NCBI GenBank assembly: GCA_903844645.1
Contig: CAIMUP010000013.1
Coordinates: forward strand, 1,428-65,427
Source of the DNA: an uncultured Bacteroidota bacterium
GTDB taxonomy: Bacteria; Bacteroidota; Bacteroidia; AKYH767-A; JABDAW01
DNA length: 64,000 nt
Direction of reading: 5' to 3'
Shown here one piece after another: positions 1,845-58,158 of the stretch (positions are counted from its first letter, which is position 1; every line of letters starts with the position of its first letter). Under the pieces are notes generated by a model. The model was given only the letters and a program-made list of their open reading frames with translations. It ran no database searches and was not told the origin of the DNA. The position numbers were made by a program, and so were the translations under genes.

Positions 1845-2046
1845 GCCGCGCAAATGATTATTAGCGGAGCTCGAATAGGTATTAGAGGAGCTCAAATGGT
1901 TATTAGAGGAGCTCGAATAGGTATTAGAGGAGTTCGAATAGGTATTAGAGGAGTTCGAATAGGTATTAGAGGAGCTCTAATAGGTATTAGAGGAGCTCAA
2001 ATAGGTATTGGAAGAGCTCAAATAGGTATTAGAGGAGCTCAAATTC
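1845..2046. repeat. 21-bp tandem repeat array A, about 9.5 copies, unit GGAGCTCGAATAGGTATTAGA
   Basis: Direct reading: units at 1866-1886, 1887-1907 and onward through 2033, plus partial units at each end. Variants are GTTCGAATA and GCTCAAATG. The array is intergenic between the receptor and the lipoprotein gene. Confidence 0.95.
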
Positions 2047-2077
2047 CATCAATTTGTATTAATAAATTAGCTGTATC

Positions 2078-2974
2078 ATGAAAAAACTACTCTTTCTCCT
2101 TGCCCTGATTCCATTCATCTTTATCGGTTGCGAGAAAGATATTGCCGTGAATTTCCCGCCGCCACCCGATTTATTGGTCATCGAAGGGCACATCGAGCCG
2201 GGCGGATTTGCCTACGTTCACGTTACGCGGAATGCCAATTATTTCGCCTCCACGAATACCGATTCGCTGTTGCAATACCTCGTTACGGATGCCATCGTGG
2301 TAGTTTCTGATGGGATATTAATGGATACTTTGAAACAGACATTCGCCCCGTATTTGGACCCTTATTTCCCTGCTCCGGTGATTTATCTGGGGCAATTAAT
2401 CATCGGGCAACCGAACCATACCTACACACTGAAAGTCATTGCCAACGGGCAAACAGTTACCGCCACGACCTCCATCCCCGGGCTTGTACCGCTCGATAGT
2501 ACCTGGTTTAAGGTGGAGAATAACCTCGACAGTTTGGGATATGTTTACGGACACATGCACGACCCCGATTCCTTGGGCAATGCCTACCGGTTTATGATCA
2601 AACGGATTGGGCATTTCTCCGATGGCAAGCAGAAGGATTTGGGATTTATTGCCGATGTGAATTCGGTATTTGATGATAAAGTAATTAATGGGCAGAGCTT
2701 TGATGGCGACTTCAACCGTCCACATCTGCCGCATGATACCTCGGTCGAGAATCACAATATCGAGAATGGATATTTCAAGAAAGGCGATACCATCGTCCTG
2801 AAATGGATGACCCTCGACCACGATCATTACAAGTTCTGGCAAACCGAAGGTATCGCCGCCAATGGCGCGGATAATCCCTTCGCCTCCCCGACCATTATCA
2901 AGAGTAATATCAAAGGCGGCTTAGGTATTTGGGGAGGCTATGGCACGACCTATGACACGATTATTGCGAAATAA
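2078..2974 (+). CDS. lipoprotein, DUF4249-like (typical downstream partner of TonB-dependent receptors in Bacteroidota)
   Basis: Signal peptide plus lipobox (LLALIPFIFIGC). The size is about 300 aa. Position directly after a TonB-dependent receptor gene. Confidence 0.5.
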   Translation: MKKLLFLLALIPFIFIGCEKDIAVNFPPPPDLLVIEGHIEPGGFAYVHVTRNANYFASTNTDSLLQYLVTDAIVVVSDGILMDTLKQTFAPYLDPYFPAPVIYLGQLIIGQPNHTYTLKVIANGQTVTATTSIPGLVPLDSTWFKVENNLDSLGYVYGHMHDPDSLGNAYRFMIKRIGHFSDGKQKDLGFIADVNSVFDDKVINGQSFDGDFNRPHLPHDTSVENHNIENGYFKKGDTIVLKWMTLDHDHYKFWQTEGIAANGADNPFASPTIIKSNIKGGLGIWGGYGTTYDTIIAK

Positions 2975-2983
2975 AAGATAACT

Positions 2984-3919
2984 ATGGAAGAAAAAGTAAA
3001 ATGTTTAATCATCGGCTCGGGTCCTGCGGGATATACAGCCGCTATTTATGCCGCCAGAGCCGATATGAAACCCGTGCTTTATCAGGGTTTGCAGCCTGGC
3101 GGTCAATTAACCATCACTACCGAAGTAGAGAACTATCCGGGCTACCCCAAGGGCACTATGGGTCCGGAGATGATGGAGGATTTCAAAGCCCAAGCCGAAC
3201 GATTCGGGACAGATATTCGATGGGGATATGCCACCTCGGTGGATTTCTCTGGTGCAGTTCATAAAGTTATTATTGATGAAACCACGACCATCTTCGCCGA
3301 TACGGTAATCATCGCAACCGGTGCTTCTGCCAAGTGGCTCGGATTGGAATCCGAACAACGACTGAATGGTTTCGGGGTATCGGCATGTGCCGTCTGCGAT
3401 GGTTTCTTTTTCAAGAAGCAAGATGTCGCCATCGTTGGTGCCGGAGATACCGCTGCCGAAGAAGCTACTTACCTCGCCAAGCTATGCAACAAGGTGTATA
3501 TGATTATTCGTCGTGATGAGATGCGAGCTTCCAAAGCCATGCAACATCGCGTGCAGAATACTGCCAACATCGAAATTATTTATAACTCCGAAACCAAAGA
3601 AATCCTTGGCGAGAAGACCGTAGAAGCCGTCTTGGTTTATGATATTAAGAACAAGGTAGAGCGGAAACTCGATGTTACTGGCTTCTTCGTCGCGATAGGT
3701 CATCAGCCCAACACCGATTTATTCAAAGGCATCCTCGACATGGATGAAAACGGCTATTTAATCACCATTCCCGGCACTACCAAAACCAATGTCGGAGGCA
3801 TTTTTGCTGCAGGCGATGTCGCTGACCATGTGTATCGCCAAGCCGTTACCGCAGCCGGAACCGGATGTATGGCAGCCATAGATGCCGAAAGATATTTAGC
3901 CGCCAAAGGCATCCATTAA
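2984..3919 (+). CDS. trxB: thioredoxin-disulfide reductase
   Basis: FAD motif GSGPAGYTAAIYAARA, redox-active CAVCD motif and second NAD(P) Rossmann motif GAGDTAAEEA. Length is 311 aa. Confidence 0.92.
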   Translation: MEEKVKCLIIGSGPAGYTAAIYAARADMKPVLYQGLQPGGQLTITTEVENYPGYPKGTMGPEMMEDFKAQAERFGTDIRWGYATSVDFSGAVHKVIIDETTTIFADTVIIATGASAKWLGLESEQRLNGFGVSACAVCDGFFFKKQDVAIVGAGDTAAEEATYLAKLCNKVYMIIRRDEMRASKAMQHRVQNTANIEIIYNSETKEILGEKTVEAVLVYDIKNKVERKLDVTGFFVAIGHQPNTDLFKGILDMDENGYLITIPGTTKTNVGGIFAAGDVADHVYRQAVTAAGTGCMAAIDAERYLAAKGIH

Positions 3920-4089
3920 AAGGGGTAAAATAAATTTTGATTAGATAGCTCGCCTGCCGATCTCCTGAATGTTTTTTCTCATTACAAATTTCCTTTTCTT
4001 GTATTTTTTCGAGTTCCCCGAGGAATGAAATTTCTTTAATCGAGGCATTAGGAAAAAAAGCAGGGCATCAAATTACCCAATTTCATACC

Positions 4090-4345
4090 TTAAGTTTTTG
4101 CTCAAGGCATCACATTACCCGATGTGTGGGGTTGAGCAAAAACTTAATGCTTCACATCATCCAATTTGGAGGTATGGGAAAAAAAGTAATGCCCCACATT
4201 ACCCGATTTTGGGGTATGGCAAAAAACCTAATGCCCCACATTACCCAATGTGATGGTATGGCAAAAAACCTAATGCCCCACCTTACCCAATGCGGGGGTA
4301 TGAGCAAAAAAGTAGTGCCTCACATTACCTAATGTGGGGGTGTGA
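4090..4345. repeat. 42-bp tandem repeat array B, 6 copies, each with an internal short inverted repeat (CACATT...AATGTG)
   Basis: Units such as CAAAAAACCTAATGCCCCACATTACCCAATGTGATGGTATGG repeat head to tail. The array lies between the convergent trxB and symporter genes. The period is 42, which is 2 x 21. Confidence 0.9.
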
Positions 4346-4551
4346 TTTTCAATACATTCAAATATAAAATAAGAATCTCTAAAAATAGCCTCCAAGGTAG
4401 TGATCAAATAGAGCAATCAAAATAAAATAAAAAAATGATTAAATAAAATAATGAAAATTATGATAGACTTCGCAAAGTATTTTTTAATCCTTTTTATGAT
4501 AAATTCATTTACCGGGATAAATTGAAGCAATTTACCGAGGAAGGAGGTATT

Positions 4552-6069
4552 TTATAAACTCACTTTGGGATGAATTTTGTATTTTGCGATTAATAACAAG
4601 CCGATAAAAGTCAGCAGTCCGTTAATCATCAGCATCTCGAATCCGAATTGATAGGAGGTGAATAATTCTTTTGAATAAGTGTTCAGAAGGTAGCAAATTG
4701 TGGGCGGAAAAAGGGCGATGACAGGCACCAATTTATCCCTTACTTGCAGCTTCGTAAAGAGTCCGAAAACAAACAACCCGAGCAAGGGTCCGTAGGTATA
4801 ATTGGCGATGGTGAAGAGGTTATTCAGCACCGATTCTTTGATGGAGGTCTTGAAATAAACGATGACCAACAGCAAAATTATAGCGAAGCACAAATGCACC
4901 ACGCGGCGTACTTGCACTTGCTTCTTCTCGGTCCAGTTTTTTTCTCTGATACCGATAAAATCTATGCAGAAAGAGGTCGTCAAAGCGGTCAAAGCACCGT
5001 CAGCACTCGGGAAGGCTGCAGATATTAATCCGATAATGAAAAAAATACCGGAAACAGGTCCGAGAAAATGCAAGGCAATGGTCGGGAACAGGTCGTCTGA
5101 ATGCACCGGTATCGCAATGTTTTTCGCAGCAGCGAACAGGTAAAGCAATGCCCCCAAACAAAGGAACATAATGTTCACAAAGAAGAGAATAATACTGAAG
5201 GTGAACATGTTTTTTTGGGATTCTTTGAGGGTCTTGCACGAGATATTCTTTTGCATCATCTCTTGGTCTAAGCCCGTCATAGCGATAGCGATAAAAGCAC
5301 CGCCAAAGAAGTGCTTCAAGAAGAATTTTTTGTCGTTAAAATCAGTAACGAAGATGGCGGAATGCGGACGGTTTTTGATATTTGAAATCATATCGGTAAT
5401 GGAGAAGTTCAGTTCTTTCCCGATAAGATAAATCGTGATTACCACGGCTAATAACATGAAGGTTGTTTGCAAGGTATCTGTCCAAACAATCGTCTTTACG
5501 CCGCCCTGAAAGGTATAAAGTAAAATCAATACGATGAATGCCGCAACCGTTACTGTGAAAGGGATTCCCCACTCATCGAAAACGAATATCTGTAACACAT
5601 TAACCACAATATAAAGCCTGAATGACGCACCAATTACTCGCGAAAGCAGGAAGAAAAAAGCACCTGTTTTGTAACTGTATGCCCCGAAGCGTTGCAGTAG
5701 ATAGGAATAGATGGAAGTGAGGTTTAATCTATAATAAAGTGGCAGTAAGATGGTGGCGATAACAGCATACCCGACCATGTATCCTAAGACCATCTGGAAG
5801 TAAGCGAAGTGTTGCGGACCCACCCCTCCGGGTACCGACATAAAGGTTACACCGGATAGCGAAGCACCGATCATTCCGTAGGCTACCAGATACCATTTCG
5901 AGGACCTGTTGCCGATGAAGTAGGTTTCATTCGTGGCGTTGCGGCTGGTAAGATATGTGATGAGGAAAAGCACCGCAGAATACACCACCACGCAGGTTAA
6001 AAGTAAAGAAGGAGTCATTGTTTTTTTATAAGATGAGCAAAGAAACATAAAAGTATGGTAATTTTGCAA
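4552..6069 (-). CDS. sodium:solute symporter family (SSF) transporter
   Basis: About 13 predicted TM segments. SSF-like N-terminal region (FIGNRSSKWYLVAYGMIGASLSGVTFMSVPG). The start may be the internal Met of MTPSLLL at about 6018. Confidence 0.75.
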   Translation of the reverse strand: MQNYHTFMFLCSSYKKTMTPSLLLTCVVVYSAVLFLITYLTSRNATNETYFIGNRSSKWYLVAYGMIGASLSGVTFMSVPGGVGPQHFAYFQMVLGYMVGYAVIATILLPLYYRLNLTSIYSYLLQRFGAYSYKTGAFFFLLSRVIGASFRLYIVVNVLQIFVFDEWGIPFTVTVAAFIVLILLYTFQGGVKTIVWTDTLQTTFMLLAVVITIYLIGKELNFSITDMISNIKNRPHSAIFVTDFNDKKFFLKHFFGGAFIAIAMTGLDQEMMQKNISCKTLKESQKNMFTFSIILFFVNIMFLCLGALLYLFAAAKNIAIPVHSDDLFPTIALHFLGPVSGIFFIIGLISAAFPSADGALTALTTSFCIDFIGIREKNWTEKKQVQVRRVVHLCFAIILLLVIVYFKTSIKESVLNNLFTIANYTYGPLLGLFVFGLFTKLQVRDKLVPVIALFPPTICYLLNTYSKELFTSYQFGFEMLMINGLLTFIGLLLIAKYKIHPKVSL

Positions 6070-6086
6070 CCTGAATCAAAGAAATC

Positions 6087-7532
6087 ATGATAGAAAAGAT
6101 AAAAGCATTTGAAGAAATAGCACGGCAACTGGAGCCGAATGCCCCTATTCGTAAGGGAGTCAGGAAGAAGGTGATAGATTATACAGAAGATTTTCTGGAT
6201 AACATTTATTCTCTGAAAGCCTACGAACAAACTGATGATCAAGGCAAAGGACTCTTCGATTCTCCCATTAATGATGTTACGATAGACATTGAGGAGGCGA
6301 TACAAATCATCTTCGAGAATGTGGATACGCAAGGATTGAATCCGGCTTCTGGCGGACATCTTGGGTATATCCCCGGTGGTGGCATCTATTATTCTGCTTT
6401 GGCAGATTATATGGCAGCTATTACCAATCGGTATGCAGGAATTTTCTTTGCCTCGCAAGGTGCGGTAAGGATGGAGAACCTGTTGATAAAATGGATGGCT
6501 AATATCGTAGGCTATGACGAAGCCGCAAGTGGAAACCTTACCACTGGCGGCAGCCTTGCCAATCTTATCGCGATAGTTACCGCCAGAGATGCCCATAATA
6601 TTAAAGCGAAAGACATCGAGAAAACCGTTATTTATTTGAGTGAGCAAGCACATCACAGCGTGGAGAAAGCCATCCGTATTGCGGGCATGAATGAATGCCA
6701 AAAACGCTTCCTTCCGATGGATGAAAGGTATCGTATCAAACCTGATGCTTTGGAAGAATATATCAAACAAGATCTATCCGATGGCTTGAAGCCCTGGTTG
6801 GTGATCGCTGCTGCCGGAACGACTGATGTTGGGGCGGTGGACCCCTTGGATAAGATAGGAACCATTGCCAATGAATACAACCTTTGGTTTCATGTGGATG
6901 GTGCTTATGGCGGCTTCTTCGCCTTGACCGATGAAGGTAAAACAATCCTCAAAGGCATCGAGAAATCTGACTCCGTAATCATGGATCCGCATAAAAGTTT
7001 GTTCCTGCCTTACGGGCTTGGCGTGGTCTTGATAAAGGACAAGAAACACCTCTACCATGCCCATCATTACTTCGCCAATTACATGCAAGACACCTTGAAA
7101 AATGCCGATGAATTATCCCCCGCAGACCTCTCGCCAGAACTTACCAAACACTACCGCAGCCTGCGATTGTGGCTCCCCCTGAAACTCCACGGCGTAGCCC
7201 CCTTCCGTGCCGCTTTGGAAGAGAAATTACTACTCGCAAAATACTTCTACGACAAGATAAAAACCACCAAAGGCTTCGAGGTATTGATAGCCCCGCAACT
7301 CTCCGTCATCATCTTCCGATACATCCCCAAAAGCGGCGATGCGAACGCCTTCAACGAACGCATCATTCAGGAAATTCACAAAGACGGACGCATCTTCTTT
7401 TCCTCCACCACCATCAACGGAAACTACATGCTGCGCCTCGCCATCCTCTCCTTCCGAACACACCTCGAAACGGTAGATTTAGCCCTCCAAATCATCAATG
7501 AAAAAGTAGCGTTATTAAACCTCAAACCTTAA
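6087..7532 (+). CDS. PLP-dependent amino-acid decarboxylase (group II, aromatic-L-amino-acid/glutamate decarboxylase family)
   Basis: HVDGAYGG motif and the PLP-lysine motif DPHKSLFLPYG. Length is 481 aa. Transcribed divergently from the symporter. Confidence 0.8.
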   Translation: MIEKIKAFEEIARQLEPNAPIRKGVRKKVIDYTEDFLDNIYSLKAYEQTDDQGKGLFDSPINDVTIDIEEAIQIIFENVDTQGLNPASGGHLGYIPGGGIYYSALADYMAAITNRYAGIFFASQGAVRMENLLIKWMANIVGYDEAASGNLTTGGSLANLIAIVTARDAHNIKAKDIEKTVIYLSEQAHHSVEKAIRIAGMNECQKRFLPMDERYRIKPDALEEYIKQDLSDGLKPWLVIAAAGTTDVGAVDPLDKIGTIANEYNLWFHVDGAYGGFFALTDEGKTILKGIEKSDSVIMDPHKSLFLPYGLGVVLIKDKKHLYHAHHYFANYMQDTLKNADELSPADLSPELTKHYRSLRLWLPLKLHGVAPFRAALEEKLLLAKYFYDKIKTTKGFEVLIAPQLSVIIFRYIPKSGDANAFNERIIQEIHKDGRIFFSSTTINGNYMLRLAILSFRTHLETVDLALQIINEKVALLNLKP

Positions 7533-7557
7533 AGCCTTTACATCTTCACGACCATTA

Positions 7558-7592
7558 TTAAATAAAAAAAAGTGGCATTTTTTTATGCCGCT
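7558..7592 (+). terminator. weak rho-independent terminator after the decarboxylase gene
   Basis: GTGGCAT-TTTTTTT-ATGCCGC imperfect hairpin followed by a T-rich tract. Confidence 0.35.
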
Positions 7593-7671
7593 TTATAAAT
7601 ATTTCTTTGATAGAAGTTGGTAAAGTGAGAAATTATTAGTAGTTTTGTGCGCTCAAATAAAAAACACATAG

Positions 7672-8652: not shown

Positions 8653-8718
8653 AAAAATAAAATGAAAAACTATTGCTTTCGGTTTAGGAAAAATGCAGGG
8701 CGGTTTAGCTTTTATATT

Positions 8719-8928
8719 GACCTGTTTAAAGTTTATGTCGGTCTGTTTAAAGTTTGTATCGGTCTGTTTAAAGTTTAAACAGGTCTGTTTAAAGTTTGTA
8801 TCGGTCTGTTTAAAGTTTAAACAGGTCTGTTTAAAGTTTAAACAGGTCTGTTTAAAGTTTGTATCGGTCTGTTTAAAGTTTAAACAGACCTGTTTAAAAT
8901 TTGTACAGACCTGTTTAAAAACTATATT
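8719..8928. repeat. 21-bp tandem repeat array C, 10 copies, units GGTCTGTTTAAAGTTTGTATC and GGTCTGTTTAAAGTTTAAACA alternating
   Basis: Direct reading: units at 8719, 8740, 8761 and onward through 8908. Contains palindromic GTTTAAAC cores. The two variants follow an a-b-a-b-b-a-b higher-order pattern. Confidence 0.95.
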
Positions 8929-9076
8929 GACATAGTAAAATGTTATTAATCATAGCATTTATGCTTTTCAGAGGGTAAAATATGCAATAATTACTAAAAA
9001 TAAATCTTCAGAAAATAGTTTAATCGGAATATTATCCCGTTCTTTGCCGCCGTAAAACCAATAAATACATATTAAA

Positions 9077-9712
9077 ATGTCTAACCTACTACCAGGCACA
9101 CCGATAAAAGCAAGTCGCAAATTCATGACTTTCGGAAGAGTAAAGCTTATTGCTGAATATGAATTAGTGAAAACGGGAATGACCAGTCCTGCCGGCATCG
9201 GTCATTATGCAAATCCTACGGTTGCATTCGCCACCATGGACCCTATCAAGCAGGCAATTACTGATGCCTATAACTTAAAAGATAAGGTAACGATGCGGGC
9301 AAGGATCAAGGATTTGAAAGATGACATGCGCAAGAACGCGACTTTTGCTGAAGAACATTGTAACAACGACCTCGCCACGTTGTTATTGAGCGGTTACAAA
9401 GAAGCTCAACAGGGTGGTGGTCCTGAAATAGCCATTGGCGGCACTACTAATTTGAAAGCTGGCGATACAGGAATTGTTGGCGAAATGAAAGGAACTTACA
9501 GAAGACCAGCTGGAACGAAACATGTCGAGGGATGGAGCAAGTTACACAGTGCTCCGGAAACTGCCTGGGCATTGACTGCTGTGACAGATGTCGGAGAAAT
9601 CTTCTGGACAGGCGTAGCGAAAGGTGTGGAAAACGATTACAAAGTTCGTAGTGGTGCCGGTCGCAGAAAAGGTGCATTCAGTTCGGTAGTTACCGAGATT
9701 TGCAGGTATTAA
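9077..9712 (+). CDS. hypothetical protein (no recognisable domain; shares a YANP..AF.T motif with ORFs 29206 and 44324)
   Basis: 211-aa ORF with no signal peptide. Directly downstream of array C and followed by a terminator. Confidence 0.5.
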   Translation: MSNLLPGTPIKASRKFMTFGRVKLIAEYELVKTGMTSPAGIGHYANPTVAFATMDPIKQAITDAYNLKDKVTMRARIKDLKDDMRKNATFAEEHCNNDLATLLLSGYKEAQQGGGPEIAIGGTTNLKAGDTGIVGEMKGTYRRPAGTKHVEGWSKLHSAPETAWALTAVTDVGEIFWTGVAKGVENDYKVRSGAGRRKGAFSSVVTEICRY

Positions 9713-9735
9713 TTTAAGAATTAAATAAACAGGAA

Positions 9736-10356: not shown

Positions 10357-10362
10357 TTGGAA

Positions 10363-15544: not shown

Positions 15545-15577
<33 letters not shown>

Positions 15578-15659: not shown

Positions 15660-15945
15660 TTAAAGTTTCCAAAAATTTCCGCGATTTTTCAGGAATCTTG
15701 GTCAAGTCGCCAGAGTTTTGACCAAAGTTTCATACGCCCCAGCCAAAGTGTGCCGAACTTCAGCCAAAGTTTTGGAAACTTTGACCAAAGTCCAGCGACT
15801 TTGACCAAAGTAGATGAAGATTCGGTTGAGGTTTCTGAAACTTTGACCAAAGTGGGCTTCACCGTGGTCAAAGTTTCTGCTTTCTCGCCCAAAGTTTCCG
15901 GAAATTCCTCCAAAGTTTCCCAAAAATCCCCCAAAGTTTCTGAAA
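15660..15945. repeat. degenerate 21-bp periodic array (about 13 copies) with a conserved CCAAAGT core
   Basis: CCAAAGT occurs at 15722, 15743, 15764, 15785, 15805, 15847, 15867, 15889, 15909 and 15930. The spacings are 20 to 22 bp, or 42 bp where one copy is missing. Confidence 0.7.
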
Positions 15946-16076
15946 CTTCGGGACCTGTAGGAAGAATATTGGCTGTAAATCAGTCCATTTCTTTCCTGAC
16001 TTCGATTTTCGAGGTCCTTTTACAAAATCCCGCTAACGGAATCCAAATAGAAATTTAATAACTTAATAAATAAACT

Positions 16077-28646: not shown

Positions 28647-28855
28647 TTCACCCTTTTGAGGGATTGTTTTAGGAACTAATACCTTGTAATTTTGCATCCT
28701 TAATTACAAACAATGGATCATTACAATCACATAGCGAATACAACGGATAGCAATCACGACAGAGGCAATGCTTCTGGAAGGTTTTTCAATGGTGGCGGTA
28801 GTGATATGGATACAAATTGTAGTTTAAACATATGCCAAAAAAACTCAAACATATC

Positions 28856-29095
28856 TTTTAGTAACAATAAGATACCTTTTAGTAACAATAAGATACCTTT
28901 TAGTAACAATAAGATACCTTTTAGTAACAATAAGATACCTTTTAGTAACATAAAGATATGTTTTAGTAACAAAAAGATACCTTTTAGTAACAAAAAGATA
29001 CCTTTTAGTAACAAAAAGATACCTTTTAGTAACAAAAAGATATGTTTTAGTAACAAAAAGATACCTTTTAGTAACAATAAGATATGTTTTAGTTT
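28856..29095. repeat. 21-bp tandem repeat array D, about 11.5 copies, unit TTTTAGTAACAATAAGATACC
   Basis: Units at 28856, 28877 and onward through 29066. Variants are AACAAAAAG and GATATG. Confidence 0.95.
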
Positions 29096-29205
29096 TTCTC
29101 ACCATAGTAAAAGCAATAGTTGCTATGGTGATGGGTCTTTTCAGAATGCCCACCCCTCTCCCTTGTATTCAAAACCAAGTAGTAACATAATAAAATAACA
29201 ATAAA

Positions 29206-34659: not shown

Positions 34660-34862
34660 TTAATACCCCTATTTTTCCCAATGTACACGTGTACAATTCG
34701 TCCTGCAACTGTGTCGGAGGCAATGTTCGGTGTACTTTGCCCCAACACAGTTGTGTTTGCCAATTCTACATGTGTACTATTGGCAAACACAGTTACTTTT
34801 GCAGAAGTACACGTGTAGAATTGGCAAACACAACTGTGTTTGCCAAATGTACACGTGTACAT
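34660..34862. promoter_or_regulatory. cluster of long palindromes in a divergent promoter region
   Basis: TGTACACGTGTACA is a perfect 14-bp palindrome at 34672 and again at 34838. TTGGCAAACACAACTGTGTTTGCCAA is a perfect 26-bp palindrome at 34822-34847. AATTCTACATGTGTACT and AGTACACGTGTAGAATT form inverted repeats at 34753 and 34806. Confidence 0.6.
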
Positions 34863-37867: not shown

Positions 37868-37909
37868 GAAAGCCCTCCCGACATAAAATTGGGAGGGCTT
37901 CTTTTTTTA
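37868..37909 (+). terminator. strong rho-independent terminator after yfhO-like gene
   Basis: AAGCCCTCCC-gacataaaatt-GGGAGGGCTT perfect 10-bp stem followed by TTTTTTT. Confidence 0.85.
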
Positions 37910-37950
37910 GCTAAAAGGACGATTTGGGAAGCCCGAAAAATTTTTCCGCT

Positions 37951-38200
37951 ATGAATATCTTTTGCTTCGGGATGAATATCCTTTGCTTCGGGATGAATAT
38001 CCTTTGCTTCGGGATGAATATCCTTTGCTTCGGGGTGAATATCTTTTGCTTCGGGGTGAATATCTTTTGCTTCGGGATGAATATCCTTTGCTTCGGGATG
38101 AATATCCTTTGCTTCGGGATGAATATCTTTTGCTTCGGGATGAATATCTTTTGCATCGGGATGAATATCTTTTCATCCGGCTTCAATACATTTTCATCCC
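37951..38200. repeat. 21-bp tandem repeat array E, about 12 copies, unit GCTTCGGGATGAATATCCTTT
   Basis: Read directly. Variants are GGGGTGAATATCTTTT. Confidence 0.95.
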
Positions 38201-38358
38201 GGGTTAATGTCTTACATGAACTTTTCCCCGTTATAAAACCCGATTTGGAGGGGTAAAAAGGGAGGTTTTTGGAAATTCTCCACCCTCCATTTCCCACTTT
38301 TAAGTCTCCATTCCCCATTTTCCATTCCCCATTCTTTTTCCATTGTCAGGAAATTTTA

Positions 38359-40405: not shown

Positions 40406-41251
40406 TTGTTCAGAATCATTTTTTGCTGCTTAATCATTTCTCTGATGACCTCCTGTTCCTATTTCAAACATAACGACGGCAATGCCGCTGTGGCAAAGGC
40501 TTTCGATGCTACTTTGAATCGGGCTGATGTCGCGGGATTGGTGCCGAAGGGCAGCTCCAAACAGGATAGTGTGATGATAGTGAAGAGCTATATTGACTCT
40601 TGGATTCGGAAGGAATTGGTATTAAGAAAAGCCGAGAAAAACCTCTCCGATGAGGCGAAGGATGTAGAGAAACAATTGGCAGATTATAAGAATTCTTTGA
40701 TAATTTATGCTTATGAAAAGGAACTGGTTCGCCAGCAATTAGATACCACGGTGAAGGATGCGGAGATCGAAAAATATTACAACGAGCACCAGGGAAATTT
40801 TGAATTAAAGGATAATATTATCAAGGTTTTGTACCTTAAATTACCGAAGACTGCGCCGAGACTTTATACCGTGAGGCAATGGTATAAATCCTCCAAGGCG
40901 AATGACCGGAAGTCGCTTGAGGACTATGCGCATCAGTATGCCGTGAATTATTATTTCGATGATAATTCGTGGTTGCAATTCGATGATTTATTAAAAGAAA
41001 TTCCGATTAAAACCTACGATAAAGAGCAGTTCTTGAAGAACAACCGGTATGTCGAAATCGAGGATTCGATGAATCTGTATTTCGTCAATATCAACGGCTT
41101 CAAAACTAAGGAAAGTACCTCGCCGCTCTCGTTTGAAAAGGATAATATCAAGAGCATTATTATCAATAAAAGGAAGCTGAAATTGATTGAGGATATGGAG
41201 AAAAAGGTGTACGACGAGGCGGTGAAGGGCAGCGATTTCAAGATTTATTAA
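40406..41251 (+). CDS. lipoprotein in the PPIase operon (SurA-N-like chaperone domain?)
   Basis: Lipobox SLMTSC. About 280 aa. Confidence 0.5.
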   Translation: MFRIIFCCLIISLMTSCSYFKHNDGNAAVAKAFDATLNRADVAGLVPKGSSKQDSVMIVKSYIDSWIRKELVLRKAEKNLSDEAKDVEKQLADYKNSLIIYAYEKELVRQQLDTTVKDAEIEKYYNEHQGNFELKDNIIKVLYLKLPKTAPRLYTVRQWYKSSKANDRKSLEDYAHQYAVNYYFDDNSWLQFDDLLKEIPIKTYDKEQFLKNNRYVEIEDSMNLYFVNINGFKTKESTSPLSFEKDNIKSIIINKRKLKLIEDMEKKVYDEAVKGSDFKIY

Positions 41252-41281
41252 TAAAATGGACAAAAAGATGCTTTTTCTATT

Positions 41282-41444
41282 AAATACGACTACAATGATG
41301 CCGTCATCTCCTACAATGATAGCGTCATCTACTACAATTATGCCGTCATCTACTACAATTATGCCGTCATCTACTACAATGATGGCGTCATCTACTACAA
41401 TTATGCCGTCATCTACTACAATGATGGCAACTTCGACTACACAT
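41282..41444. repeat. 21-bp tandem repeat array F, about 7.5 copies, unit ATGCCGTCATCTACTACAATT
   Basis: Read directly. It lies between two co-directional operon genes, with 16 bp before the surA-like start. Confidence 0.95.
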
Positions 41445-41459
41445 TTATTACATTAATTC

Positions 41460-43817: not shown

Positions 43818-43869
43818 GAGAAGAATCCGGGGGATTCAAATCAGTTTTTGGTGTCTGGAGCAGTTTAAC

Positions 43870-44163
43870 GGCTGTTGATTGGAGAAAGTCGGCTGTTGAT
43901 TGGGGAAAGTTGACTGTTGATTGGGGAAAGTCGGCTGTTGATTGGGGAAAGTCGGCTGTTGATTGGGGAAAGTTGACTGTTGATTGGGGAAAGTCGGCTG
44001 TTGATTGGGGAAAGTCGGCTGTTGATTGGGGAAACATGGACGTAGATTGGGGAAACATGGACGTAGATTGCGGAAACATGGACGTAGATTGGGGAAACAT
44101 GGAGGTAGATTGTAGAAACATGGAGGTAGATTGCAGAAACATGGAGGTAGATGGGTTTTACAC
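43870..44163. repeat. 21-bp tandem repeat array G, 14 copies in two blocks (GGCTGTTGATTGGGGAAAGTC x7, then GGACGTAGATTGGGGAAACAT x7)
   Basis: Units run from 43870 through 44143 in exact 21-bp steps. Confidence 0.95.
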
Positions 44164-49926: not shown

Positions 49927-50167
49927 CCGACCGGATTTGGGAAAGATGCGGTCGGATATTTCCTTTCTCCGGTCGGATATTTCTTTTTTCCGGTCGGATA
50001 TTTCTTTTTTCCGGTCGGATATTTCTTTTTTCCGGTCGGATATTTCTTTTTTCCGGTCGGATATTTCCTTTTTCCGGTCGGAGATTTCTTTTTTCCGGTC
50101 GGAGATTTCCTGTTTCCGGTCGGAGATTTCCTTTTTCCGGTCGGATATTTCCCGTTACCGACCATTA
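49927..50167. repeat. 21-bp tandem repeat array H, about 11 copies, unit CCGGTCGGATATTTCTTTTTT
   Basis: Units at 49949, 49970 and onward through 50138. Variants are GGAGATTTCC. Confidence 0.95.
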
Positions 50168-50299: not shown

Positions 50300-51691
<1,392 letters not shown>

Positions 51692-51721
51692 ATCCCAAAT
51701 AACCTTAATAATGATATAATT

Positions 51722-53853: not shown

Positions 53854-54368
53854 GTCATTTTGAGCCAAAACGGTACCTATTTACTGAAATTCGGTAAGGT
53901 TTTCCCGATATTCTCTGCATAATCCTACGATATTACCTTGATATTTGATTATATATCGAAGGAAATCTCTCATAAATAATCCCAAAAAAGACTTATTTAC
54001 TAAGAATGGTCTATACTTTTATCCAGCGAAACGATGGTTTCATCGGGCTAAACCATAGTTTAAACAGATATTAGACCTCTTTCATTGTTGTCTTTTCAAT
54101 GATCGTATAACAATCTCGGAGGGACGGCATCTTTTTTTATTCGGTAGTAAACGATGATTTATAATAGAGGTCTATTCTTGGGAATAACTATCTAAATCGT
54201 GTGAAATGTGATCTTATACAGGCAGTTTCGGTAGTAAATAGGGGTAGTAATGATCTCGTCCAGAGGGTATTTAATAGTGTTTGGAAGGGTTCTTTAGGTA
54301 ATAATAATGAATGTGTACATACATTTTGTTCGGTGTATATGCCGCCGAGTTATTACAATATAAATTAT

Positions 54369-54558
54369 CCGTCATCATATATGAAAACGGACAATCGTAA
54401 TAGTTATTATTGTATTAACTATTGTAATTATTGCTTTAGCAATAGTAAATATGACCATAACGATACCTTGGGCGATATTTTCTATCGTTACTGCAATAAT
54501 AACATATGTAAAAGGTATCCTTAGGATACCAATTATACGTTTTCATATATGATGACGG
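54369..54558. repeat. 21-bp perfect inverted repeat pair (CCGTCATCATATATGAAAACG at 54369-54389; its reverse complement at 54538-54558) flanking a 148-bp segment that contains the 17-bp palindrome GGTATCCTTAGGATACC
   Basis: Read directly. The palindrome is at 54514-54530. Confidence 0.85.
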
Positions 54559-54565
54559 ACGAAAA

Positions 54566-54746
54566 GGATAGTAAAAGCTGTTATCACGATAGTTATTGTT
54601 GTTATCACAATGGTAAAAGCGGTTATCACAATAGTTATTGCTGTTATCACAATAGTTATTGTAGTTATCACAATAGTTATTGCAGCTATTACAATTGTAA
54701 AAGCAGTTATTATAATAGCTATAACAGTATTCACGATAGCGATGAC
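54566..54746. repeat. 21-bp tandem repeat array K, about 8 copies, unit TGTTATCACAATAGTTATTGC (alternating with ...AATGGTAAAAGC)
   Basis: Units at 54579, 54600 and onward through 54726. Confidence 0.9.
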
Positions 54747-54978
54747 AAAAACTGTAAGTACATTCATTAGTAATACCATATAAATAGCACAATAGATGAA
54801 GAAATTAAAGGTAAAACGGATGGTTTATATCAGGATTAATGATGTCCCTGACACCCGAATGGTGATTCTTTCCATGTTCCTGACAGGTTTTTTCACCTGA
54901 TAGGTTTTGAGAATTGGAATTCCTATCGTTTCATCAGGTTTTGGGATTACAATTTGGAGGGAAAGGCTTCCTTTTTTA

Positions 54979-55500
54979 TCAAAGCCGATAGTAAAAGGCA
55001 AATTCGGCAGTTACCGTAATGGTTTGGAAGCTGTCGTATCCGCCAAAACCTCCCATTAAATCGACAACGATAGGAGAAGTGCCGGTATATAATTGCAAAT
55101 CCAAGCCGAGACCTGTATTATAGGTCGAATTTGTTTTAACATATCGTTGCCCGGGATAAGTTCCGTAGCCAGAGGCTGGAGTATATTCTTTTTTGTAGAA
55201 GACAGAGTTGGCAAAATAGAAGTAAAGCCCGGCATCTTTAGACTCGCGAAGCCTTTGCAATAACGTAATGCCGAAACTTACTGTAGAATTGTCGTCTTTT
55301 TGATAGTACGGAGCGAAATTGACCATCGCCCCGAAATTTTCGGGAATATATCGGTACGAAAACCCATAGCCCGTCGTGAATCCGGCACCTACGCCGACAT
55401 AATTGTTATAATGTTTTTGCCCGGTAGCATAGTCCTGCGCATGTATTTTATTAATAAAAACGATGGCGATAAGGGCGATTATCAGAAGTTTGTTTTTCAT
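54979..55500 (-). CDS. small outer-membrane beta-barrel protein (OmpW/OmpA-barrel-like)
   Basis: Signal peptide present. 173 aa with alternating aromatic beta-strand pattern. C-terminal ...FAFYYRL. Confidence 0.55.
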   Translation of the reverse strand: MKNKLLIIALIAIVFINKIHAQDYATGQKHYNNYVGVGAGFTTGYGFSYRYIPENFGAMVNFAPYYQKDDNSTVSFGITLLQRLRESKDAGLYFYFANSVFYKKEYTPASGYGTYPGQRYVKTNSTYNTGLGLDLQLYTGTSPIVVDLMGGFGGYDSFQTITVTAEFAFYYRL

Positions 55501-55609
55501 GAATAATTTGGTTAGCTTGGTTCGTATTTTGAATGGTAAAACGGGGCTTGGCTATGGATTAGTATTTAATTTTATTAAATAAATACCGCCCCCTGATAAG
55601 AATATTTTA

Positions 55610-57781
55610 TTATAAGTTCTTCTGTAAATAATCTAACCACATCTGATACAAATGTTGCCTACTATTTCCTCCCGAAATGCCATGATTTTTGTTCGGATAG
55701 AAGAACGTGTCGAACTGTTTGTTAGCCTTTATCAAAGCATTGACAAACTCCATCGAGTTTTGGAAATGAACATTATCATCCGCCGTACCATGAATCAATA
55801 ATAGCTTTCCTTTTAATTTATCAGCGTAATAGATAGGGGAGTTTTCGTCATATCCTTTCGGGTTTTCTTGTGGCGTTTGCATGTATCGCTCTGTATAAAT
55901 GTTGTCATAGTATCGCCAATTCGTAACGGGGGCAACGCAGATGCCGGTTTTGAATACATCGGCACCCTTTGTCATACAAAGCGCGGTCATAAACCCACCA
56001 TAACTCCACCCTTGGATACCTATTCTGGAGGCATCTACAAAAGGAAGCATCTGGAGGAATTTAGCAGCCTCTATTTGGTCATCACTTTCCAGCTTTCCCA
56101 TGTTAAGATAAGTACATTTCTTAAACTCTTCGCCCCGATTCCCTGTTCCGCGGTTATCAACCGATACAATTATGTACCCATTGTTTGATAAAAGCTGATG
56201 CCAGAAGTAATCCCGACCGCCCCAGGAATCATTGACTGTGTTTGCACCAGGTCCGCCGTAAACAGTCATAAGAACAGGGTACTTTTTGGTAGCATCAAAG
56301 CCCTTAGGCTTAATAATCCAGGCGTTAAGGTCTACATTAATGGGAGTTTTTATAGTGATAAATTCTTTTTTCTGGATATTATAATCCTGGAGCTTTATAT
56401 TTAATTTGGCATTGTCCTCTAATGTCCGAACCGGCTTACCATCATTGGTATTTAAGGATATATATTCCGGCGAATTGGCATCGGTATGGAAGTTTATAAA
56501 GTATTTAAAATTAGAAGAGAAGTCCGCCCGATCGGTTCCCTTATAATTTGTCAGTTGTTTCTTATTCGTTCCATCGGTTTTGATAGAGAAAATATGGCGT
56601 TCCATAGGAGTCGGCTCCGCACTCTGATAATAAACCGTTTTAGTTGCTTCATCTACGCCATAAAAGTTAGTAATATCCGCCTTAGCCGTAGTAATTTTAT
56701 TCTCTAACTTACCATCCATTTTATAAAGGTATAGCTGATGGTAACCTTCCCCCTCACTCGACCAGATAAAGTGTTGCTTATCCTTCAGGAAAACCATGTT
56801 GTCGGTAATCTCTATATAGGTCTTATTCTCTTCTGTAAGTAAGATAGTCGTTCTCCCTGTATAAGCATCGGCAAGCAATAATTCCAGCTTGTTTTGATGA
56901 CGATTCATCTTATAAATACATAGCGTATTCGGGTCTTGCGTCCATTTTATTCTTGGAATATAGATGTCCGAATCCGGTCCTGTATTGAATTGGTTCGTCT
57001 TCCCAGATCTTATATCATAAACATAAATATTTACCAACGAATTTGCCTCTCCCGCCTTCGGATATTTATAGATATATTCTTCCGGGTAAAGCGAACCGTA
57101 TTTTGCTATCTGATACTGCCGAACTTTGCGTTCATCAAACCGATAAAAGGCTATAAAATTCCCATCATTATTCCAAAAAAAAGCGGGAGCAAATTCAAAT
57201 TCTTCTTCATACACCCAATCGCAAGAACCATTGATTACTTCATTCAGCTTTCCATCATACGTTACTTGCTTTTCCGAACCATTGACGAGGTCTTTTACAT
57301 AAAGATTATTATCTCTTGCAAACGCCACTTTATTTCCATCAGGAGAAAGCGAGGCATACTGCTGCTTTCCCTTGTCAGACACAGGAGTCAGGCTCTTTGC
57401 CTTACGATCATAAATATAATAAATAGCTTTATAAGAACGGCGATAAATAGCCACGACATCAGTCTTAATAATGATGCGGCTTTCGTCAGCATTAAATTGA
57501 TAATCGCCAATATTTATCTTCTCTTTTAATGATTTTTCGGAGAGAATGGTATCAACCAATTTGCCTGTTTTATATTCATACCGAAGTATCGCGCCATCGG
57601 CATAAGTAGTGTAATGCAAGCCATCTTTCATGGATGTAATTCCGTTCACAGTCTCGGCTTTGAAGGTGTTATTTTTCCATATATCATCCAGCGTGATGTC
57701 TTTTTTATTCTGCTGCGCAACGATGGTAGTACCTATAAAAAGGAACGCCATCAGTAATTTATTTTTCATATTTCTTTTCAT
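55610..57781 (-). CDS. S9-family serine peptidase, dipeptidyl-peptidase IV-like
   Basis: Signal peptide present. The N-terminal region has a beta-propeller pattern. Catalytic GWSYGG motif, and the Asp/His region near the C-terminus (...HGTADDNVHF...). Confidence 0.85.
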   Translation of the reverse strand: MKRNMKNKLLMAFLFIGTTIVAQQNKKDITLDDIWKNNTFKAETVNGITSMKDGLHYTTYADGAILRYEYKTGKLVDTILSEKSLKEKINIGDYQFNADESRIIIKTDVVAIYRRSYKAIYYIYDRKAKSLTPVSDKGKQQYASLSPDGNKVAFARDNNLYVKDLVNGSEKQVTYDGKLNEVINGSCDWVYEEEFEFAPAFFWNNDGNFIAFYRFDERKVRQYQIAKYGSLYPEEYIYKYPKAGEANSLVNIYVYDIRSGKTNQFNTGPDSDIYIPRIKWTQDPNTLCIYKMNRHQNKLELLLADAYTGRTTILLTEENKTYIEITDNMVFLKDKQHFIWSSEGEGYHQLYLYKMDGKLENKITTAKADITNFYGVDEATKTVYYQSAEPTPMERHIFSIKTDGTNKKQLTNYKGTDRADFSSNFKYFINFHTDANSPEYISLNTNDGKPVRTLEDNAKLNIKLQDYNIQKKEFITIKTPINVDLNAWIIKPKGFDATKKYPVLMTVYGGPGANTVNDSWGGRDYFWHQLLSNNGYIIVSVDNRGTGNRGEEFKKCTYLNMGKLESDDQIEAAKFLQMLPFVDASRIGIQGWSYGGFMTALCMTKGADVFKTGICVAPVTNWRYYDNIYTERYMQTPQENPKGYDENSPIYYADKLKGKLLLIHGTADDNVHFQNSMEFVNALIKANKQFDTFFYPNKNHGISGGNSRQHLYQMWLDYLQKNL

Positions 57782-58017
57782 ATAATTTGGGGCGAAATTA
57801 GTATAATTAAGGATAATAATATGATGAAGTATTTGATAAAAATAAGGATGACAAAAGGAATGCTACACGACAAATTATTTTTTCATAAACTTCAGATTCA
57901 TCTACTAAATGACTACAATTTTTATCTAATAATTTGGAGAATTAATGCCTGCAAAACGGAACAAATTAAGAGCATAAAAATGTGGCTTCTTTGGAATAAA
58001 ATTCTGAATAAGAGGGA

Positions 58018-58158
58018 TTCCGACTCGGCTGCGAATGATTTCGTCGTGACTGCGACTATTTTCATCATGACTGCGACCATTTCCGACTAGATTGCGACTA
58101 TTTTCATCGTGACTGCGACCATTTCCGACTAGATTGCGACCATTTTCATCGGAAATCC
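58018..58158. repeat. 21-bp tandem repeat array J, about 6.5 copies, alternating units TTTCATCGTGACTGCGACCAT and TTCCGACTAGATTGCGACTAT
   Basis: Units at 58018, 58039, 58060, 58081, 58102 and 58123. Confidence 0.9.

Follow-up and report, generated by a model that had tools for sequence, protein, structure and literature searches.

Mutually unrelated tandem arrays with a shared period of 21 or 42 bp in the intergenic spacers of one bacterial lineage

Why should tandem repeats whose units are unrelated in sequence agree on one length? The window (the whole 64-kb stretch of DNA that was analysed) raises this question in spacer after spacer. It contains 13-15 head-to-tail arrays with a period of 21 bp, together with one whose primary period is 42 bp. 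Arrays occupy 15 of the 18 intergenic spacers longer than 170 bp and take up 31% of the non-coding DNA; their share of the window is about 5%, compared with about 4% in a preliminary description of this DNA. Tandem Repeats Finder (TRF) recovers each array listed there to within ~10-25 bp. The announced count of 13 does not agree with the 12 actually listed, and the list is incomplete, missing an array and its inverted partner (61985-62110 and 62111-62200), a lattice that continues to ~62447, and repeats at 54399-54452 and 38287-38334. The observation itself is confirmed as real and is stronger than was reported: the arrays are far beyond chance expectation.

The arrays sit between real genes, in operon-internal, terminator-to-promoter, convergent and divergent spacers and in both orientations (coordinates are those of the window and carry no strand). 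Array A (1845..2047, 21 bp x about 9, unit TATTAGAGGAGCTCAAATAGG; TRF 1859-2044, x 8.9) takes up the spacer that separates a TonB-dependent receptor gene from its DUF4249 partner, as assigned with Pfam. Array C (8700..8928, 21 bp x 10; TRF 8711-8919) has two unit types, a 63-bp higher order and a palindromic unit, TTTAAACAG-GT-CTGTTTAAA. Array D (28847..29097; TRF 28847-29093, x 11.8) holds 12 copies of the 21-bp unit AAAGATACCTTTTAGTAACAA, and array E (37945..38215, 21 bp x about 12.5; TRF 37951-38213), downstream of an intrinsic terminator at 37870-37900, has decaying copies at its right edge. Array F (41282..41445, 21 bp x 7, 63-bp higher order; TRF 41289-41426, x 6.6) fills the spacer upstream of a SurA-like gene, while array G (43866..44163, 21 bp x 14; TRF 43868-44152, x 12-14), downstream of MoxR, consists of two blocks whose unit types have diverged from each other. 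Array H (49927..50167, 21 bp x 10-11, unit CGGTCGGATATTTCTTTTTTC; TRF 49949-50152, x 9.7) begins 14 nt past the DgkA stop codon. Array I (51503..51691, 21 bp x 7-9, 42-bp higher order; TRF 51563-51690, x 6.1) ends 30 bp ahead of the next gene and overlaps the last ~14 codons of the upstream aminotransferase-family gene, the one place where the arrays are not strictly intergenic as first described. Array K (54399..54750), in a convergent spacer, has a degenerate left part (54399-54566) and a right part of alternating units (54567-54750, 21 bp x about 8; TRF 54568-54722, x 6.8). Alternating units, with a 42/63-bp higher order, also make up array J (58018..58160, 21 bp x about 6.5; TRF 58018-58151, x 5-6). 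The complex M (61934..62447, z21 = 12.2), to which the overlooked array and its inverted copy belong, forms a ~300-bp imperfect palindrome with arms at 61934-62058 and 62115-62239 that are 86% complementary, and its right part, up to about 62447, is a degenerate 21-bp lattice with a CGA core. Higher-order blocks of 42, 63 and 84 bp within arrays make visible the ongoing local duplication and divergence that had been suggested earlier.

The next question is "how exclusive is this period?" Our clade sample comprises 150 kb in all, from the window genome and relatives whose SurA is at least 69% identical. Within it, each of the 22 arrays that reach four copies has a period of 21 or 42 bp. At a copy identity of at least 90%, period 21 accounts for 27 runs and the other periods from 15 to 41 (18, 24 and 27 bp included) for 0, which is the peak at 21 in related DNA that the preliminary description had named as a check. 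None of the about 30 clade arrays has a period of 20 or 22. In the controls, 1.43 Mb from outgroups and 80 other genomes, period 21 is represented by three two-copy runs and by no multi-copy array; the array periods there are broad (8, 9, 12, 14, 16, 39 and 120). The trait is confined to one uncultured Bacteroidota lineage: relatives with 69-82% SurA identity have arrays, and those with 54-55% and the 80 other genomes lack them.

Array B (4090..4345, primary 42 bp x about 6, in a convergent spacer; TRF 4111-4341, x 5.5) has an identity of 0.78 at lag 42 versus 0.20 at lag 21, as its first reading had it, and its unit holds a hairpin with a 9-bp stem, CCCCACATT-ACCC-AATGTGGGG. Primary 42-bp units with unrelated halves occur here and in L101, so the rule is "multiples of 21" (two or four helical turns) rather than a single fixed step of 21 nt.

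Could the assembly have made the arrays? All of the ~150 kb of clade DNA comes from short-read metagenome assemblies, which fragment at arrays, and 21 is the smallest k of MEGAHIT and SPAdes, so that de Bruijn assemblers starting at k = 21 might create period-21 cycles. Array C is the end point of four independent contigs, contigs L105-L107 end at complex M, and an N-gap of scaffold L001 falls inside array E; absolute copy numbers are therefore uncertain. However, the same arrays are recovered from different samples in four types of assembly (MEGAHIT k141, SPAdes, JGI and Logan (k=31) contigs), their copies are diverged (59-96% matches) with 42/63/84-bp higher-order patterns and degenerate lattices, the units differ from species to species, and the control contigs, also largely metagenome assemblies, lack such arrays. 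An assembly artefact is an unlikely source of the arrays, and we give next to no credence to cycles at k = 21.

Copy number between otherwise identical samples differs by exact multiples of 21 bp, and differences of +42, +63 and +84 bp between samples are seen. The locus of array A is longer by 63 and 84 bp in other samples, and sample L106 has one more 21-bp unit in array K, the remaining 11.5 kb being identical. The arrays behave as hypervariable VNTRs, which had been anticipated. They are non-coding, and turnover is fast: in the sister taxa L093 and L099, one and the same spacer, its flanks conserved, holds arrays that are unrelated to each other, with decaying edge copies in L099. The spacer that array F fills is only 12-40 bp in three relatives, which points to a de novo gain of this array, and in a 71% relative it contains a small 21-bp array of unrelated sequence.

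We turn to what the units might share. No robust motif common to units of different arrays is found, nor any residual similarity between arrays, and the units have no 7-bp substructure (lag-7 z = -0.4). Likewise, neither a common flank motif, TIR or TSD nor a general transposon signature is found at the arrays. With periods 20 and 22 missing as well, these results support the core inference of the preliminary description, that the same length in unrelated sequence points to a length-selecting process and not to the spread of one element. Unrelated units of 21 or 42 bases imply a sequence-blind, length-measuring process that is undescribed so far. Alternatively, one ancestral 21-bp family may have spread and drifted beyond recognition, with the period preserved by in-register amplification (the "library" model). 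Divergence followed by amplification of variant units can indeed be seen in the two blocks of array G, the a/b units of array C and the edge copies of array E and L099. The clade indel:substitution ratio, however, is 22:101, and at 0.22 indels per substitution turnover should often amplify 20- or 22-bp variants, of which there are 0 among about 30 arrays; this contradicts simple inheritance of the period from one family. Since the arrays also lack mutual similarity and array F appears to have been gained de novo, we consider common descent very improbable.

The main rival explanation is mutational. A lineage-specific replication, repair or recombination activity may duplicate DNA in quanta of 21 nt, for example by nicks staggered two turns apart and then filled in, or by a polymerase or recombinase whose slips have a constant length; the arrays would then be neutral or mildly deleterious by-products, tolerated in non-coding DNA only. 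This would suit the sharp lineage restriction, the disregard of sequence and of spacer type, the extremely fast turnover and copy-number variation, a curvature that is not clearly optimised (see below), and the finding of no promoter box, Rfam family or consistent terminator signal in the arrays. A precedent for a mutational period bias is the preference for heptamer periods in many prokaryotes, reported as unexplained in surveys (PMC4679880, citing Mrazek 2007; PMC6344855). On the other hand, the two halves of the primary 42-bp units are unrelated, the shared flank motif that a site-directed enzyme would need is absent, and the 53 kb of coding DNA is free of arrays although 21 bp is frame-neutral. 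Copy numbers are mostly 6-14, and "newborn" arrays of two or three copies are so few that the size distribution is unlike the geometric one expected from neutral births.

The decayed arrays also bear on this choice. In the degenerate array of a divergent spacer at 15700..15950 (TRF 15888-15940 plus a degenerate lattice back to 15722), the sole conserved part is a core, CCAAAGT, within a full dyad, CCAAAGTTTC-N-GAAACTTTGG; elsewhere the core occurs at chance level. Successive cores are spaced by 21, 21, 21, 20, 42, 21, 21, 21 and 21 bp, while the rest of each unit is ~45% diverged. If the copies of degenerate arrays were identical before decay set in, this lattice should show about 17 register breaks at the ratio of 0.22, and 1 is seen (P about 1e-6); at an assumed ratio of 0.1 the deficit has P = 0.004. 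The register is far better kept than the clade indel rate predicts, which argues for a spacing constraint. Because of this and of the primary 42-bp units, the evidence leans to a spacing constraint over a 21-nt mutational step, the two options originally named, and we judge duplication in 21-nt quanta to be unlikely.

We tentatively favour, at somewhat less than even confidence, an explanation in which slippage is the engine and helical phasing is the filter. Arrays would arise in intergenic spacers of every type. Slipped-strand mispairing or unequal sister-strand exchange, probably assisted by hairpin-prone, dyad-symmetric units, would add or remove whole units, and between sister species the arrays are wholly replaced. 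DNA geometry would decide which arrays persist. The lengths 21 and 42 bp are the smallest whole numbers with an integral count of 10.5-bp turns (two or four), so that each copy presents the same helix face. Small bends per unit may then add coherently along the array, and the feature maintained may be a one-sided, bent lattice. The most plausible reason would be a platform that an abundant, sequence-tolerant nucleoid-associated protein (a candidate architectural protein) binds or wraps, or else a structural spacer between transcription units. As a point against the phasing reading, neutral or selfish satellite DNA typically shows very fast turnover and private sequences as well.

Dyad symmetry, overlooked in the preliminary description, is enriched: a stem of at least 5 bp is present in 9 of 20 units versus 2.2 expected (p = 1.3e-4), which fits dimeric binding sites or hairpin-assisted slippage. 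With a wedge model, the predicted coherent curvature is 80-400 degrees per array, highest in array D, as a consequence of the phasing. The predicted bend per unit, however, exceeds that of column-shuffled controls only modestly (its median rank is about 0.15) and is below average in arrays C, H and K, so the curvature is not clearly optimised.

The hairpins could instead act in RNA. Arrays would then be 3' UTR or intercistronic RNA whose hairpins serve as 3'-end stabilisers, terminators or sponges for RNA-binding proteins, in the manner of enterobacterial REP/BIME elements. In co-directional spacers the array usually starts 14-100 nt past the upstream stop codon, arrays A, F and I lie inside apparent operons and hence must be transcribed, the units are hairpin-enriched, and strong RNA folding is predicted in some arrays. 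We nevertheless find such a role improbable: about half of the units lack a stem of at least 5 bp, convergent and divergent spacers hold arrays too and both orientations occur, there is no Rfam match, T-tracts are inconsistently oriented, array E sits past a strong terminator, and a 21-nt period is structurally meaningless for single-stranded RNA or A-form helices.

Each of the lengths 21, 42, 63 and 84 is also divisible by 3, so the period alone cannot separate helical from codon arithmetic. The arrays could be frame-neutral inserts of seven codons that are translated either as small ORFs between cistrons, with the translational coupling proposed for mycobacterial MIRUs, or as peptides of heptad repeats. 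An ORF across array A (1791-2081; 96, 117 or 124 aa among samples) shares bases with the stop codon of the gene before it (TGATG) and the start codon of the gene after it (ATGA); in arrays A, D, F and I a sense frame free of stops ends -3 to +8 nt from the next start codon, and substitutions in array K are 3-periodic (phase sums 18/2/8). Yet the post-hoc probability that the A/D/F/I pattern arises by chance is about 0.03, and 47 of 72 frames (65%) are open where base composition predicts 63%, which shows no avoidance of stop codons. The most "synonymous" frame has stops in 5 of 12 arrays, array M has them in 5 of 6 frames and 62195-62447 in all frames. Moreover, a frame-changing 1-bp register shift leaves the CCAAAGT core intact as DNA sequence, convergent and divergent spacers again hold arrays, and codons would equally permit periods of 18, 24 or 27 bp. 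The seven-codon arithmetic noted earlier is correct; selection at the level of translation is not found in these arrays and seems to us quite improbable.

A literature search gave no description of such a repeat class, in agreement with the preliminary description, and known systems resemble it in part only. Iterons of plasmid and secondary-chromosome origins (R6K, pSC101, RK2, P1) are direct repeats of ~17-22 bp spaced ~21-22 bp apart, likewise tandem in several copies on one helix face and often partly dyad-symmetric. They have one sequence per replicon, bound by a cognate Rep encoded nearby, and mark the origin, whereas the arrays here, at dozens per 100 kb, have private sequences, lie among housekeeping genes without a rep gene and turn over completely between sister species. 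Bacterial VNTRs and MIRUs share the intergenic, often intercistronic, head-to-tail arrangement and whole-unit copy changes between close genomes, and the ORF of array A resembles a reported MIRU arrangement. MIRUs, however, form one sequence family of 46-100 bp, while these arrays are mutually unrelated, and ordinary VNTRs have a wide range of periods, in contrast to the quantisation at 21n and the extreme density here. REP/BIME elements are also intergenic, typically just past stop codons, with hairpin-forming units and a possible role as targets for architectural proteins (gyrase and IHF in E. coli; putative for these arrays); they have a genome-wide consensus, alternate in orientation in BIMEs and are mobilised by RAYT transposase, unlike these head-to-tail arrays without consensus or TIR/TSD signature. 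Eukaryotic satellites (curved, and described by a "library" model) similarly keep a period amid rapid sequence turnover, with higher-order repeats, decaying edges and predicted curvature; their periods are nucleosome-length or 5-10 bp and their arrays megabase-scale and heterochromatic, against 130-300 bp in bacterial spacers. The long heptanucleotide SSRs and cyanobacterial STRR/TAACTGA repeats (PMC4679880, with Mrazek 2007 as cited there; PMC6344855) show a comparable lineage-dependent, intergenic and unexplained period preference, 21 being 3 x 7, and like the 21n arrays are seen in some Bacteroidota; the arrays here differ in having no internal 7-bp periodicity and no shared heptamer, the unit being private to each array.

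Two further observations concern short sequences. AAAG/CTTT is present in 12 of 21 units against 0.33 in real intergenic background (p about 0.02, uncorrected), and a minor feature, a CCATTCC-type short repeat (38287..38334; period 7/14/21, 2-4 copies by TRF), adjoins array E.

The arrays of the window are real, and Tandem Repeats Finder (TRF) recovers all those listed in the preliminary description with boundaries within ~10-25 bp. Arrays with a period of 21 bp are found at 1859-2044 (A), 8711-8919 (C), 28847-29093 (D), 37951-38213 (E), 41289-41426 (F), 43868-44152 (G), 49949-50152 (H), 51563-51690 (I), 54568-54722 (K) and 58018-58151 (J), an array with a period of 42 bp (B) at 4111-4341, and a degenerate array with a CCAAAGT core at 15722-15937/15940. 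The thirteen arrays announced at the outset are twelve in the list itself, and that list misses an inverted pair of 21-bp arrays (61985-62110 and 62111-62200) inside a ~300-bp palindrome, a degenerate 21-bp lattice that runs up to ~62447, a left extension of array K (54399-54452) and a small 7/14/21 repeat (38287-38334). TRF output and register prints show the units standing head to tail, the structure by which a VNTR or minisatellite (unit of ~10 bp or more) is recognized.

According to the ORF listing, the translations and Pfam, all of the window arrays are intergenic. Their surroundings are those of an ordinary Bacteroidota chromosome, with genes for GyrA, Ffh, EF-P, TrxB, RibBA, MoxR, SurA-like rotamases, T9SS Por_Secre_tail/CHU_C proteins, and a TonB receptor with its DUF4249 partner. 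An array is present in 15 of the 18 spacers longer than 170 bp. Together the arrays cover 3.3 kb, or 5.1% of the window, and of the non-coding DNA they occupy 31%. If our reading is right, a bacterial genome can give about one third of its non-coding DNA to repeats defined by length alone. Upstream of the window, the next 7.9 kb of this genome (contig L108) include two additional arrays. That contig also contains a 156-bp period (2115-2597, 3.1 copies) within the gene of a Por_Secre_tail (T9SS-secreted) protein, an ordinary coding domain repeat that is unrelated to the 21-bp arrays.

The next question is how exclusive the 21-bp period is. We compare a clade sample of ~150 kb (the window genome and relatives at 69-82% SurA identity, short-read metagenome assemblies only), graded relatives fetched via the SurA-like protein, and 80 control loci (1.38 Mb) from other Bacteroidota and other phyla fetched via MoxR, with identical TRF settings throughout. 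The clade has 22 arrays with at least four copies and a period of at least 8 bp, 21 of them with period 21 and one with period 42; the periods, relatives included, are thus confined to 21 and 42 bp and not broadly distributed. The trait is lineage-specific: in relatives at 54-55% SurA identity TRF finds no array of at least four copies and period at least 8 (53 kb in the tally). Among the control loci 13 arrays pass the same limits, their periods scattered over 8, 9, 12, 14, 16, 39, 42 and 120 and never 21, and what matches period 21 there is trivial (1.9-3.3 copies). A lag-match scan at 90% identity or more gives 27 period-21 runs in the clade DNA and none at any other period from 15 to 41.

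The periods are quantized at multiples of 21. Window array B and an array on contig L101 (8352-8513) have a primary period of 42 bp with unrelated halves, and the rule is therefore one of multiples of 21 rather than of a single 21-nt step. A sparse, distant case of the same rule may be the 42-bp array on contig L005 (503-676, 4.2 copies, 94% matches, no 21-bp sub-period), located upstream of a lipoprotein gene where no other genes are present. This contig, the closest GTDB match to MoxR (73% identical), is labelled 'Chryseobacterium gleum' MAG TrE-03may19-215, a species label that looks doubtful.

A period of 21 coincides with an assembler k of 21, and the arrays would then be assembly artefacts, a proposition to which we give almost no credence. 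The copies are diverged and form 42-, 63- and 84-bp higher-order patterns as well as degenerate lattices; contigs assembled from several samples by MEGAHIT k141, SPAdes, JGI and Logan (k = 31) contain the same arrays; the units differ among related species; and the control contigs, also largely metagenome assemblies, are without such arrays. Clade contigs break off or carry N-gaps precisely at arrays, which points to real repeats that short reads cannot bridge and leaves the absolute copy numbers, mainly their upper limit, uncertain. One candidate for copy-number variation, the 'extra 100 bp' on contig L001, was a scaffold N-gap. It is also seen that clade contigs are systematically short or stop at arrays and that gene callers emit spurious repeat 'proteins' of 60-160 aa over them. 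The arrays fragment short-read assemblies and yield spurious small ORFs in MAG annotations, a lineage-specific problem of MAG quality and annotation.

The arrays are non-coding. Open frames number 47 of 72 (65%, versus 63% predicted from base composition), so that stops are not avoided; in 5 of 12 arrays stop codons interrupt the very frame that is richest in synonymous differences; the complex at 61934-62447 (array M) has stops in five of six frames and its lattice (62195-62447) in all six; and the CCAAAGT core is kept as DNA across a 1-bp register shift that alters the reading frame. On the chance level of the open frames, the stops in the best-synonymous frames and the core that crosses a frameshift, we reject a coding or heptad-peptide reading. 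A constraint at the level of translation is likewise quite improbable, since codon constraint alone would permit periods of 18, 24 or 27 bp, which are never seen. There are two observations to be recorded here. Sense frames without a stop run over A, D, F and I, the arrays that abut the next gene (1791-2081, 28713-29198, 41226-41456 and 51459-51719), and end -3 to +8 nt from the downstream start; at array A the frame shares bases with the stop upstream (TGATG) as well as with the start downstream (ATGA), a MIRU-like arrangement that is exact for A only and near for D, F and I. Array K (54567-54750), the only array with a coding-like substitution pattern, has strongly 3-periodic copy differences (phase sums 18/2/8), most of which leave the peptide unchanged in two open frames (plus strand IVIAVIT, minus strand VITAITI). 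We take these frames and this periodicity as a hint, weak and post hoc, that translation is tolerated or coupled, and not as the explanation of the arrays.

We turn our attention to the units. They are effectively unrelated in sequence and share no k-mer beyond chance; with the lack of any 20- or 22-bp arrays, this supports the central inference drawn in the preliminary description, that a common length with unrelated sequence points to a length-selecting process. What the units do share is an enrichment in dyad symmetry: 9 of 20 units contain a stem of 5 bp or more (2.2 expected, p = 1.3e-4), and 3 of 20 one of 7 bp or more (0.18 expected). Examples are CCAAAGTTTC-N-GAAACTTTGG, TTTAAACAG-GT-CTGTTTAAA and CCGAAGC-A-GCTTCGG, and the dyad-symmetric sequences are private to each array. 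Several candidates for a common motif are rejected. An AAAG/CTTT core occurs in 12 of 21 units against 4.3 in shuffled ones, but real intergenic 21-mers of the same genome have it at a frequency of 0.33, which leaves no significant excess (p ~0.02 uncorrected). CCAAAGT as a dispersed site has a chance-level frequency outside its own array, and the arrays do not read as promoter arrays, the Bacteroidota -7 box TAnnTTTG being absent from them (1 of 67 hits). A composition of three heptamers is rejected as well, with lag-7 autocorrelation inside units at z = -0.4. No conserved leader or flank motif is found around the arrays, and the TIR/TSD signature is absent, with inverted flanks in 2 of 21 arrays and direct flanks in none. 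One of those two is the array at 19105-19269 of contig L083 (21 bp x 7.6), flanked by the 26-bp inverted repeat AACTTCCCGAAGTTTTCCTAAAACCT and its complement. Rfam and tRNA scans give no match in the arrays, and we regard a function at the RNA level as improbable.

The arrays are hypervariable and change by whole units. Over 11.5 kb the only difference between the window and a contig from another sample (L106) is one extra 21-bp unit in array K; in two further samples, gene coordinates imply 63 and 84 additional bp in array A and 42 in an upstream array. The VNTR behavior expected between samples is thus confirmed, and with tandem structure and whole-unit copy variation both present, the arrays are bacterial VNTRs, or minisatellites, and would serve as very fast markers for following populations across samples. 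The first strain-level look-ups returned the same population (at least 99.9% identity). Copies at the edges have decayed further than those in the centre, and variant units occur as amplified blocks, the pattern classically left by slippage or unequal exchange. Copy numbers are mostly 6-14, and isolated duplications of 2-3 copies are rare.

Between species the arrays are rapidly replaced, neither their positions nor their sequences being conserved. The spacer that holds array F is only 12-40 bp long in three relatives, and in a 71% relative it holds an unrelated small array. In two sister taxa (contigs L093 and L099), with genes ~90% identical in DNA, the MoxR-SmpB spacer has a 21-bp array in both; the ~400-bp array segments cannot be aligned, and the flanks (350 bp on the left, 31 bp on the right) are 84-86% identical. 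The same pair gives 22 indel events per 101 substitutions in ordinary non-coding DNA of the clade. This rate bears on common descent, the proposal that all arrays inherit their period from one ancient family, because full sequence turnover at such a rate should yield 20- and 22-bp arrays; none exist, which disposes of inheritance from a single family and makes it a very improbable account.

The degenerate array at 15722-15937 keeps its register despite decay. Neighbouring units are only ~0.56 identical, and the CCAAAGT cores are spaced by 21, 21, 21, 20, 42, 21, 21, 21 and 21 bp, a single register break where ~17 would be expected under neutral decay (P ~1e-6; P = 0.004 at half the indel rate). 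We take this as evidence that the spacing is constrained. This array adjoins an (AC)14 microsatellite (15547-15574) in the same divergent spacer; a contig from another sample (L090) has (AC)17 there, its sole indel across 10.8 kb.

The reading that we tentatively prefer, at somewhat less than even confidence, combines a slippage engine with a helical-phasing filter. The engine would be slipped-strand mispairing or unequal exchange, the usual mechanism in tandem repeats and one that hairpins promote. The filter would be helical geometry, 21 and 42 being the smallest integers at which 10.5-bp turns come out whole; a period of 10/11 or 31/32 would add a rotation of ~17 degrees with every unit. 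Such units may form a one-sided lattice for a putative abundant, sequence-tolerant architectural protein, which would account for the period and the dyad symmetry, and also for why any sequence is tolerated and the register conserved. In a wedge model with parameters of the Bolshoy-Trifonov and De Santis tables, each array has a predicted coherent curvature of 80-400 degrees, a direct consequence of exact phasing; the predicted bend per unit is only modestly above that of shuffled units (median rank ~0.15), so that curvature is not clearly optimized.

The main rival is a clade-specific mutational quantum, e.g., cuts staggered two turns apart followed by fill-in, which would account for the lineage restriction and for the indifference to sequence. 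It leaves unexplained that primary units of 42 bp exist, that newborn arrays are scarce and that the register is conserved, and we consider it rather unlikely. Possible, if doubtful, is a dedicated molecular ruler at work across the genome, either an enzyme that duplicates arbitrary DNA in quanta of two helical turns (21 nt) or a lattice of nucleoid protein that acts as template and selector for 21-bp phasing. The organism would then be continuously rewriting sequence-independent periodic DNA into its intergenic regions; to our knowledge no such system has been described in bacteria. The ruler-based repeat duplication of Cas1-Cas2 follows a logic comparable to that of the proposed 21-nt quantum enzyme.

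The trait is bacterial minisatellite DNA unlike the described VNTR classes, from which it differs in its strict common period, private sequences and extreme density. Iterons come close, as direct repeats of ~17-22 bp phased at about two turns where the arrays are exactly 21 bp. In the iteron-like platform first suggested, the two-turn phasing stands, but the shared sequence, cognate Rep and origin context do not: iterons are one sequence at an origin with a cognate Rep nearby, whereas the arrays have private units, housekeeping neighbours (no rep gene among them) and a density of dozens per 100 kb. Unlike CRISPR, the array units are contiguous and without spacers, and the CCAAAGT lattice, with a 7-nt core and a 14-nt variable part, is far below CRISPR dimensions. 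REP/BIME elements have a genome-wide consensus palindrome, where the dyads here are private, and among the annotated genes in ~72 kb of the window genome there is no RAYT (IS200/IS605-like) transposase. MITEs carry TIRs and a TSD, and the arrays are generally without either; MIRUs form a shared 46-100-bp family, of which the arrays have no counterpart. Heptamer SSR/STRR repeats have a 7-bp period, which is seen here only in minor repeats (38305-38335; L083 4411 and 18777).

Many prokaryotes have an excess of heptanucleotide repeats that lacks an explanation (PMC4679880, citing Mrazek 2007; PMC6344855), and conceptually this is the nearest precedent for the arrays. Full-text literature searches return heptamer-repeat papers and no account of a 21-bp repeat class, in agreement with the preliminary description, whose author knew of none in Bacteroidota. 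If our reading is right, the old question of why prokaryotic tandem repeats favor certain periods, such as the heptamers, becomes experimentally approachable. The signal here is extreme, follows a binary rule (21n or nothing) and has a phylogenetic boundary. The choice between selection on phasing and a ruler-like mutational process is directly testable, and a comparison of genomes across the boundary (SurA identity at least 69% versus at most 55%) could reveal the factor, be it an architectural protein or a ruler-like enzyme. Short heptamer repeats of ~5 copies (TCTCCAT, CAATTGA, TCATTAT, TTTTACA) occur at 38287-38335 of the window, at 4411-4445 and 18777-18812 of L083, and at 9633 and 11095 of L007, thus in the clade and in a Saprospiraceae MAG, and recall the heptanucleotide SSR phenomenon.

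Two further structures of the window deserve mention. The imperfect palindrome of ~300 bp at 61934-62239 has 125-nt arms that are 86% complementary, each with a 21-bp array, in opposite orientations, and three independent contigs end at it; palindromes of ~300 bp are unstable in E. coli, which has SbcCD. The period-41 repeat at 34744-34861 (2.8 copies), in a divergent spacer upstream of a YfhO-like gene, contains nested palindromes (e.g., TTGCCAAATGTACACGTGTACAATTGGCAA), has a very strong predicted fold (-0.55 kcal/mol per nt) and may be a different kind of element.
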